In this document: positions 690 to 2,395 of the stretch, in pieces
How the letters are laid out: every line of letters starts with the position of its first letter
Position numbering within the stretch: position 1 is the first letter of the stretch
From: a phage
Sequence record: PZ386978.1
Length of the DNA: 64,000 nt
Strand: one strand, 5' to 3'
The notes under the pieces: generated by a model
Seen by the model: only the letters and a program-made list of their open reading frames with translations
Told to the model about the DNA's origin: nothing
Database searches by the model: none
Program-made: the position numbers and the translations under genes

Positions 690-1100
690 TACTGCCATCC
701 TTCCATACCAAACCGTTCCCAACCCAACCCTACAGCACCGAGCCAAACCCTACCGAACCGTGCCTAACCTGACCTAGCCGTACCTTACCAAACATCGCTT
801 AAAAACCCTCTTAGAAGACGCTTAAGTGATGTAATCGAATTTTAATGTAGCTTCGATTAACTACCCATACCTCACCTTACTTAACCGTACCGCACAGAAC
901 CACACCAAACCTAACACCACTTCTCATCACCTTATTAAAAACTCTGTTTAAAGACCTTTTAAAAAGATGAGTCTCATTTTAATGTAGATGAGACTAGCTA
1001 CCCATACCTTACCTAGCCAAACCTCACCTAACCATACCAAACCCCACTCCACCTCATTAAAAGACCCTCTTAAAGACCTTTTAAAAAGGAGCCTCCGAAG
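690..1100. repeat. three tandem ~130 bp non-coding units: ACC-rich tract followed by a conserved hairpin module
   Basis: Units at ~690-860, ~860-1000, ~1000-1100; hairpins 832-859 and 970-995 share loop TTTAATGTAG with different complementary stems; unit 3 ends in hairpin GGAGCCTCCGAAGAGGCT. Confidence 0.55.
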
Positions 1101-1116
1101 AGGCTGCCTAGTCAAA

Positions 1117-1557
1117 TTAGAAAGGTTTTCTGCGTTGTTTGTTAATGTTAGCTTTCATAGCAGCTAAATGGTTTTGCTGTTCAATCAGTCGTGAACGTTC
1201 TTGATGACTAAGTGCCATAGTGTTCACATTCTCAATTGCTTGAGTGGCTTGTTTTAAAGCACGACCAATCTTACCAGACATTTTACGTTTTGCAATAGTT
1301 GCTTGATGCTTAGGTTCAACCACACGATAACCAACACCCATTGAAGCAACCAGATAAATCTTCTCTTCTTTAAGAAGCTTCTCAATAAACTTCTCAAGCC
1401 GGTTTAGACGTGTAAGTGCATAAGCCTTCATTTCATCTTCGTACTTAACAATGTCGCCTTGATAAGTTGGCTTAACAATACCTAAGAAGGTATCCATCTC
1501 AGAATGTGATACAGTGTCACCGTAACTAAACTTTGCTGCTAATGCTTTTGTATTCAT
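1117..1557 (-). CDS. hypothetical protein
   Basis: 146 aa ORF in minus-strand gene block, tightly packed with downstream ORF. Confidence 0.5.
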   Translation of the reverse strand: MNTKALAAKFSYGDTVSHSEMDTFLGIVKPTYQGDIVKYEDEMKAYALTRLNRLEKFIEKLLKEEKIYLVASMGVGYRVVEPKHQATIAKRKMSGKIGRALKQATQAIENVNTMALSHQERSRLIEQQNHLAAMKANINKQRRKPF

Positions 1558-1559
1558 AA

Positions 1560-2162
1560 TTAAACGTTACCTTCTGAAATAACTTCTACAGAAAAACGAC
1601 CAAAGCGTGGACGCCAATCACCTACACCACAAAGGTTGCCAGCATTTTCCAGAACCATCAGAAGTTCCTCTCGGGTGATTTGCTCTTCATCGAACATCAA
1701 ACCAAACTCTACAGACCAGTCACGGAAGATTGGACGGTAGCTCATAACTCGTGCTGTGCCAATCTTAACAGACTTAGCGTAGATAAAGTCTGGATTCTTA
1801 GCAAGTTCTTGTGGGTTTGCTGGACAGTTCTTGATAGTCATTGGGAAGACTACATCTGTCAGCATAATGGCTCGGTCAATTACCTTACCAAGTTTGTTGA
1901 GTTTTGCACCAGACTTGATACAAGCCTCAATCATCTCACCGTTCATAACAAAACCAAGTTGCTCGTCGTAGTAACAAGAAGTTACCAGTTGGCTTTCTGC
2001 TAAGAGCGCATAGTCTTCGTCAGTCTTTTTACGTTTACTGGACAGAGACTTGTGATATTTTGTCAGAGGGTTTAATGGGTCTGACAGCGTATCGTTATGG
2101 CTCAAGAAAGGACGAGTACCAGTGATTTTGATATTTAGCAGTTTCATAGCATTTAGCTCCAC
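1560..2162 (-). CDS. hypothetical protein
   Basis: 200 aa ORF; no motif recognised by eye. Confidence 0.5.
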
Positions 2163-2214
2163 ACTTTAGTTGATTGTTAAGTTGTTTGTAAAGAACCCTC
2201 AACAGAAGACTCTT

Positions 2215-2395
2215 TAGAAACTTGGTAGATTTTTAACGTGGCTACTACCATCCACCCATACCGCGCCCGACCCTACATTACCAGACCATACAAAGCCATA
2301 CCCAACCAAACACTACCGCACCATACCGAACATCACTTAAAAACCCTCTTAGAAGACTCTTAAGTGATGCTGGTGAGTACCCGTTGGTTTATGCT
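2215..2395. repeat. fourth copy of the ACC-rich non-coding unit seen at 690-1100
   Basis: Shares GGCTACT(A/G)CCATCC start and CTTAAAAACCCTCTTAGAAGAC(G/T)CTTAAGTGATG end with the unit at 690-840; followed by hairpin GGTGAGTA...TACTCACC. Confidence 0.5.

Follow-up and report, generated by a model that had tools for sequence, protein, structure and literature searches.

A type II VIPR locus, with four guide RNAs and in all probability complete, in a Felix O1-like phage

VIPR (Viral Interference Programmable Repeat) systems, described in two 2026 preprints, consist of Vipr (a RAMP homolog of ~20 kDa), an accessory protein (Vap) and vrRNAs, in which 9–16 YNNGG repeats precede an invariant 3' tail, folded as a pseudoknot in the SUSP1 clade (bioRxiv 10.64898/2026.04.26.720920). 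In the model locus of Escherichia phage phiSUSP1 (SUSP1), one vrRNA lies upstream and three lie downstream of both genes, and the vrRNAs accumulate as separate ~100-nt RNAs that co-purify with Vipr (bioRxiv 10.64898/2026.04.26.720920). The NN bases pair with double-stranded DNA, with one target base, usually a codon wobble position, skipped per repeat; the complex represses transcription, and the guides of the SUSP1 clade converge on a satellite phage in the Escherichia coli chromosome (bioRxiv 10.64898/2026.04.26.720920). Cryo-EM revealed a right-handed filament with one Vipr protomer per repeat, in which H17, R138, D177, W178, R179 and their neighbours read the flipped-out GGY, and NN is presented for pairing (bioRxiv 10.64898/2026.04.26.720927). 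Expression of the SUSP1 vrRNAs, binding to Vipr and silencing have been shown by small-RNA sequencing, pull-down, GFP repression and cryo-EM (bioRxiv 10.64898/2026.04.26.720920 and 10.64898/2026.04.26.720927). The present analysis concerns a 64,000-nt stretch of phage DNA (sequence record PZ386978.1), referred to as the window, in which the minus strand of positions 623–2427 is almost certainly a complete type II VIPR locus of a Felix O1-like phage. Its guide tracts and protein genes, in gene-strand order, are as follows.

2256..2330, minus strand, vrRNA1 guide tract of 15 YNNGG repeats
1560..2147, minus strand, vipr, coding for a RAMP-fold guide-binding protein of 195 amino acids
1117..1557, minus strand, accessory gene vap1, adjoining vipr and coding for 146 amino acids
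1002..1056, minus strand, vrRNA2 guide tract of 11 YNNGG repeats
865..919, minus strand, vrRNA3 guide tract of 11 repeats, or up to 14 when degenerate repeats out to position 934 are counted
703..792, minus strand, vrRNA4 guide tract of 18 YNNGG repeats

The window belongs to a Felix O1-like phage; its region 590–2440 shows 91–95% identity to dozens of Felixounavirus phages. The 1.85-kb region is also 90.5% identical at the DNA level to that of SUSP1. Vipr is 97% identical to SUSP1 protein ALH47069, >90% identity being the definition of the SUSP1 clade, and Vap1 is 99% identical to ALH47068. Vipr has the RRM core, G-rich loop and thumb that characterise the RAMP fold. All eight GGY-reading residues that were checked, taken from the list in bioRxiv 10.64898/2026.04.26.720927, occupy the same positions (H17, R138, D177, W178, R179, E71, M72 and C173). 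That preprint (Results section 5) also names a pocket residue T175; position 175 is valine in both ALH47069 and the window protein (CGVGDWR), and T175 is probably a slip. The Vipr family has 519 members at E ≤ 1e-3, none of them with a Pfam domain. Pfam gave no family for the three proteins of the locus, Vap1 included, and PHROGs returned only families of unknown function, that of Vap1 being PHROG 5926. Vap1 is predicted to have a DNA-binding fold.

The locus agrees with that of SUSP1 in gene order, position, promoters, flanking motifs, tails, terminator, YNNGG grammar, the layout of one plus three vrRNAs and the presence of targets in the same kind of E. coli satellite. It differs in its host phage, a Felixounavirus rather than a Suspvirus, in all four guide sequences, in one guide of 18 repeats, and in having two guides for which no target was identified. 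Since the locus is a near-identical ortholog of the experimentally characterised system of the 2026 preprints, the element is already known.

More distant likenesses extend to the backbones of Class 1 CRISPR-Cas complexes, in which proteins of the Cas7 family (Csm3, Cmr4 and Cas7d) have the RAMP/RRM fold with a G-rich loop in common with Vipr. As in Cas7 filaments, one protomer serves one guide repeat unit and bases are flipped at a fixed interval (bioRxiv 10.64898/2026.04.26.720927). The Vipr guide is distinguished from a CRISPR guide by being a 5-nt tandem repeat, of which two in five bases pair, and by skipping every third rather than every sixth target base. No CRISPR array and no cas1, cas2 or other cas genes were found in the locus, and a repeat search of 580–2440 gave only the pentamer tracts and the unit repeats. 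A further parallel is offered by the sites of TRAP (trp RNA-binding attenuation protein) in Bacillus trp leaders, in which about 11 trinucleotide motifs, separated by spacers of 2–3 variable bases, each bind one subunit. TRAP is a closed ring that acts in cis on its own leader, and its spacer bases carry no information; in VIPR, by contrast, the spacers hold the information and a RAMP filament acts on foreign DNA.

The initial annotation, made from the sequence alone, had described four repeated non-coding units, each with a tract of ACC at roughly 6-nt periodicity on the plus strand. Tracts were called where CC occupied at least 6 of 10 positions at 5-nt spacing, over the whole 64 kb and on both strands. 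Exactly four were obtained, as had been described, all with the C-rich strand on plus (683–812, 855–934, 982–1071 and 2241–2345). No further tract was detected on the other strand or elsewhere in the 64 kb, with plus-strand GG scored as well. The period, however, is exactly 5 nt and not 6, the best score being 10/10 at period 5 as compared with at most 5/10 at periods 4, 6 and 7. The repeat unit is CCNNA on plus and YNNGG on minus, and the functional strand is the latter, i.e. the gene strand. With period and strand so corrected, the observation is genuine and far beyond chance.

Repeat statistics were collected from 66 distinct tracts of 27 loci, namely 23 IMG/VR loci with the neighbouring gene and those of Felix O1, nataliec, bumzen and SUSP1. 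Y occupies position 1 of the repeat in 99.5%, G occupies position 4 in 78% and position 5 in 99%, and positions 2 and 3 are unconstrained. The flanks of the tracts are nearly invariant between phages, whereas the middle NN bases of each pentamer vary freely.

It is this strict grammar that bears on a reading of the plus strand, by which the tracts would be Rho utilisation (rut) sites that halt antisense transcription into the early genes. The CCNNA tracts, 55–90 nt long, are indeed C-rich and G-poor like rut sites. However, no plus-strand promoter faces them, and neither the 5-nt register nor the conserved tails on the minus strand would be explained. The corresponding SUSP1 tracts are demonstrated minus-strand RNAs (bioRxiv 10.64898/2026.04.26.720920). 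Hence a rut function can be given next to no probability.

On the minus strand, each tract of the putative VIPR locus runs into a short structured tail.

2224..2255, minus strand, vrRNA1 3' tail GTGGATGGTAGTAGCCACGTTAAAAATCTACC, pseudoknot with stems GTGG/CCAC and GGTAG/CTACC
970..1001, minus strand, vrRNA2 3' tail, pseudoknot with stems GTAG/CTAC and AGTCTCA/TGAGACT, then CATCTTTTT
832..864, minus strand, vrRNA3 3' tail, pseudoknot with stems GTAG/CTAC and TAATCGAA/TTCGATTA
671..702, minus strand, vrRNA4 3' tail AAGGATGGCAGTAGCCTTATAAAAAATCTGCC, pseudoknot with stems AAGG/CCTT and GGCAG/CTGCC

Two hairpins with a common loop and different stems had been placed at 832–859 (TAATCGAA/TTCGATTA) and 970–995 (AGTCTCAT/ATGAGACT), and both are present there, as stem 2 of the vrRNA3 and vrRNA2 tails, respectively. 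The loop is not free, as its CTAC pairs with the GTAG directly after the tract; thus, the tail is an H-type pseudoknot. The phasing of the units as tract followed by hairpin in plus coordinates also had to be revised, each hairpin belonging, as 3' tail, to the tract on its right (832–864 with 865–919 and 970–1001 with 1002–1056).

A search for more copies and covariation in related phages, which had been suggested as a check, was positive. In 14 distinct internal tails of related phages, 94.6% of cells are paired, as compared with 85% in shuffles and at most 40% with a slid partner, and three stem pairs are altered on both sides. The tails of first and last vrRNAs have the same topology with other sequences (GTGG/CCAC versus AAGG/CCTT and GGTAG/CTACC versus GGCAG/CTGCC); all cells (100%) pair, and three pairs are compensated. 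Tails borne by satellites contribute a GTAG/CTAC to GTCG/CGAC exchange. Stem covariation is therefore present as claimed, but in few independent events, essentially two stem alleles and one G-U/G-C/A-U series, and hence the support that it lends to the tail is qualitative. The vrRNA1 tail is identical in sequence to that of SUSP1 vrRNA1, the 3' pseudoknot of which was seen by cryo-EM (bioRxiv 10.64898/2026.04.26.720927).

Whole vrRNAs fold no more stably than shuffled sequences (z of +1.4, -2.7, -0.7 and +1.2), as expected of a guide coated by protein. The short 3' tail is the sole structured element of the vrRNA, and the selection on structure that had been proposed applies to it and not to the long tract, a protein-bound guide.

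Targets were sought in satellite phages of E. coli. DNA relatives of one SUSP1 gene, the next after the tape measure gene, occur in 474 of 5,426 complete E. coli genomes, and in each case they are chromosomal. The corresponding satellite islands, ~12 kb long and found at several insertion sites, contain a tape measure gene and a baseplate gene as well as serine recombinases. Open reading frame 70 (ORF70), the gene for the baseplate hub of Felix O1, used as an alternative probe, gave no DNA match in E. coli genomes, and a protein search with it gave no evident chromosomal (satellite) match.

Each of the 66 guides was written as NN plus one free base, according to the 1-nt-skip rule, and compared with 11 satellite loci (220 kb), with 20 shuffled versions per guide as a control. 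An NN match of at least 0.8 was reached by 42 of the 66 guides and at least 0.9 by 12; with shuffled guides, 0.8 was reached for 12 guides and 0.9 for none. For the first five loci, 31 of 32 guide matches fall inside the satellite, which makes up 45% of the DNA searched. In the window, vrRNA1 matches at 28 of 30 NN positions, in antisense, the satellite gene at 6927..7208 of satellite locus L153 (93 amino acids), and all 14 skipped bases are at codon position 3; its predicted target is the 44 bp at 7158–7201 of L153. vrRNA2 matches at 20 of 22 NN positions the segment 6895–6926 of satellite locus L160, at the 3' end of the gene family targeted by vrRNA1. No self-target was found in the window, the best self match being 0.68.

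By the mechanism described for SUSP1, one Vipr protomer would bind each YNNGG repeat to build a helical filament, which would sequester each GGY and expose the NN dinucleotides. These would pair with double-stranded DNA, every third target base being skipped, and transcription of the target would be repressed. The window phage, we infer, uses VIPR to suppress a satellite that parasitises it.

The promoters, terminator and conserved motifs of the locus are as follows.

2400..2427, minus strand, P1, strong sigma-70-type promoter TTGACA-16-TATACT that agrees with the consensus at 11 of 12 positions and lies upstream of vrRNA1, vipr and vap1
2331..2369, minus strand, motif M1 before vrRNA1 (CATCACTTAAGAGTCTTCTAAGAGGGTTTTTAAGTGATG)
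1090..1105, minus strand, intrinsic terminator hairpin after vap1, AGCCTCTTCGGAGGCT then CCTTTTT
1057..1088, minus strand, motif M2 before vrRNA2
935..966, minus strand, motif M2 before vrRNA3
793..831, minus strand, motif M1 before vrRNA4
623..651, minus strand, P2, strong sigma-70-type promoter of the next gene (195..578), which agrees with the consensus at 10 of 12 positions, at the downstream border of the locus

On the gene strand the order is therefore promoter, vrRNA1, vipr, vap1, terminator and vrRNA2 to vrRNA4. Felix O1 and SUSP1 have the same promoter as P1. At window positions 2372–2411 the -10 element of P1 and the likely start site are overlapped by an inverted repeat, GGTGAGTA...TACTCACC, which is kept in both of these phages and could be an operator. 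The M1 and M2 motifs contain TCTTYTAAGAGGGTYTTTTAA and precede every tract, and a related copy at ~2176–2215 precedes the vipr ribosome-binding site. For the vrRNAs, these motifs may serve to signal processing or a restart. A role as a phage-wide promoter was rejected, the motif being confined within the window to the VIPR locus, and a hairpin in M1 was not supported because variation in its 3' arm is uncompensated.

This arrangement can be set against the possibility that the units are cis-acting leaders, attenuators or generic regulatory noncoding RNAs that control the adjacent minus-strand genes. By its place between P1 and the start codon of vipr, vrRNA1 is in physical terms a 5' leader, and a T-rich run that resembles a terminator comes after each tail of the tandem array. 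However, the operon terminator precedes three of the four units, which lie upstream of a separate promoter, and the whole units, as stated above, fold no better than shuffles. Control in cis also does not predict hypervariable NN bases that match foreign DNA under a gapped code, and the SUSP1 vrRNAs are separate ~100-nt RNAs that co-purify with Vipr (bioRxiv 10.64898/2026.04.26.720920). Such a function is thus very unlikely. Of the roles that the initial annotation had suggested for this regulatory RNA or DNA element, that of a noncoding RNA stands, and those of a leader, attenuator or promoter element for neighbouring genes do not.

Several points weigh against assignment of the locus as a complete, functioning VIPR system. 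The vap1 terminator precedes vrRNA2, vrRNA3 and vrRNA4, so that their transcription must pass it and their 5' ends must be made. The 18 repeats of vrRNA4 exceed the published range of 9–16. As shuffles of an 11-repeat guide reach 0.82, the value of 0.91 for vrRNA2 is only moderately above background. For vrRNA3 and vrRNA4 no target was found in the 11 satellite copies, nor in IMG/VR, GTDB genomes and JGI metagenomes, which were scanned for exact matches to the gapped patterns. The only matches from these scans, in Zetaproteobacteria, were dismissed as chance, as they extend to no more than 26–27 of 36 NN positions, and extension of vrRNA3 to 14 repeats still gave no target. The homology, RAMP fold, repeat grammar, tail covariation and satellite matches of two of the four guides were demonstrated in the present analysis, whereas vrRNA expression, formation of the filament and triplex, and silencing would follow by analogy with SUSP1. 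Both sources on VIPR are preprints ahead of peer review.

The 27 loci contain one to five tracts at the VIPR locus and none elsewhere; in the whole Felix O1 genome there is a single tract. Between the same flanking vrRNA units, some phages have the vipr-vap1 cassette and others, Felix O1 among them, do not. Where present, its proteins are 99–100% identical, as compared with 91–97% for the adjacent ligase (loci L006–L026 of the set). This suggests that the cassette spread recently and horizontally via recombination between units. Promoter-early stem-loop (PeSL) cassettes of T4-type phages are promoter/terminator modules without a guide function. The VIPR locus is like them in its small gene cassette, which lies between repeated non-coding units and which some close relatives have and others lack; it differs in that any recombination between units would be a by-product of how alike they are.

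In nine loci that lack both vipr and vap1, one or two vrRNA units are retained between the ligase gene and the ORF87 homolog, and no Vipr homolog was found in the whole Felix O1 genome. Four satellites carry their own sigma-70 promoter, YNNGG tract, tail of the phage type and intrinsic terminator.

12700–12900 of L004 (57700–57900 of the Felix O1 record), orphan vrRNA locus
upstream of position 4001 of L005, L007, L011, L013, L015, L019, L022 and L027, orphan vrRNA loci
4057–4126 of L153, minus strand, satellite vrRNA
4461–4515 of L158, minus strand, satellite vrRNA
4486–4555 of L159 and of L160, minus strand, satellite vrRNAs

The orphan repeats are canonical in 80%, as compared with 82% in tracts linked to vipr, and some match the satellite at 0.87–0.92. 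The satellite vrRNA tail is identical or nearly so to the phage vrRNA1 tail. No vipr homolog was found by tblastn in the satellites that bear vrRNAs, and these satellites may borrow the Vipr of the helper phage. Orphan guides, if functional, must load in trans onto Vipr from a co-infecting VIPR-positive phage, and guides and effector would then be inherited separately. A tentative and rather doubtful reading is that vrRNAs circulate as a guide-only commodity, in which case vrRNA3 and vrRNA4 would target a mobile element yet to be sampled. The orphan vrRNAs of Felixounaviruses without vipr, and the satellites with a vrRNA and without vipr, are minor additions to the known system.

Beyond these phages, IMG/VR was scanned with a single criterion, GG repeated nine times at 5-nt spacing. 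In this way >120 unrelated viral contigs were found to carry degenerate GGYNN arrays of a similar kind, which makes this a general phenomenon and not an oddity of Felix O1. A Vipr homolog is encoded beside the array in 67 of 120 loci (L028–L147). The IMG/VR arrays frequently consist of contiguous units with a 4-nt GGCA step between them, and frequently reach right up to the ribosome-binding site of the following gene; the remaining loci include poly-G assembly artefacts and plain pentanucleotide microsatellites.

This distribution bears on whether the G-rich non-template tracts could act as DNA, i.e. as R-loop or G-quadruplex elements of a replication origin or as iterons of a replication module. 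The locus does adjoin the DNA ligase gene, ~2 kb from the DNA polymerase gene and downstream of a strong promoter; a non-template G density of at least 40% and GGN3 spacing would fit a two-tetrad G-quadruplex. However, R-loops and G-quadruplexes need no strict 5-nt register, Y at position 1 or free NN. Nor is a tract count that varies from one to five among near-identical phages expected of such elements, while in unrelated viruses a RAMP protein accompanies the tracts, and the NN code finds specific foreign targets. A function of this kind is extremely improbable. Binding by a TRAP-like ring, rut sites, R-loop origins, G-quadruplex arrays, primase recognition arrays, RfaH ops-like and boxA-like motifs and iterons were all dropped, since none predicts free NN bases that match foreign DNA.

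The VIPR locus lies between the DNA ligase gene and the ORF87 homolog, and every gene around it is on the minus strand. Its neighbours are the ligase, hypothetical proteins and an HNH endonuclease.

2435..3535, minus strand, DNA ligase gene
578..195, minus strand, gene for a signal-peptide protein, the next gene beyond P2

Elsewhere in the window, 25 tRNA genes are clustered at 57984–63556 on the plus strand, as in Felix O1. An Rfam scan of the whole window matched only tRNAs.

VIPR, a DNA-silencing system akin to CRISPR, is a recently reported form of RNA-guided DNA recognition, with a gapped code in pentanucleotide repeats, and has been proposed to be older than CRISPR. It is recognisable from raw sequence by a strict 5-nt GG register and a conserved tail beside a gene for a 195-amino-acid RAMP protein. 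The residual interest of the locus is modest and lies in the orphan guides and in the two unassigned guides, vrRNA3 and vrRNA4. In well over a hundred Felix O1-like genomes on deposit, what had been repeat regions and two hypothetical proteins can now be given names, and the window supplies a Felixounavirus example of VIPR with four new guides, two of which are aimed at one small satellite gene region.

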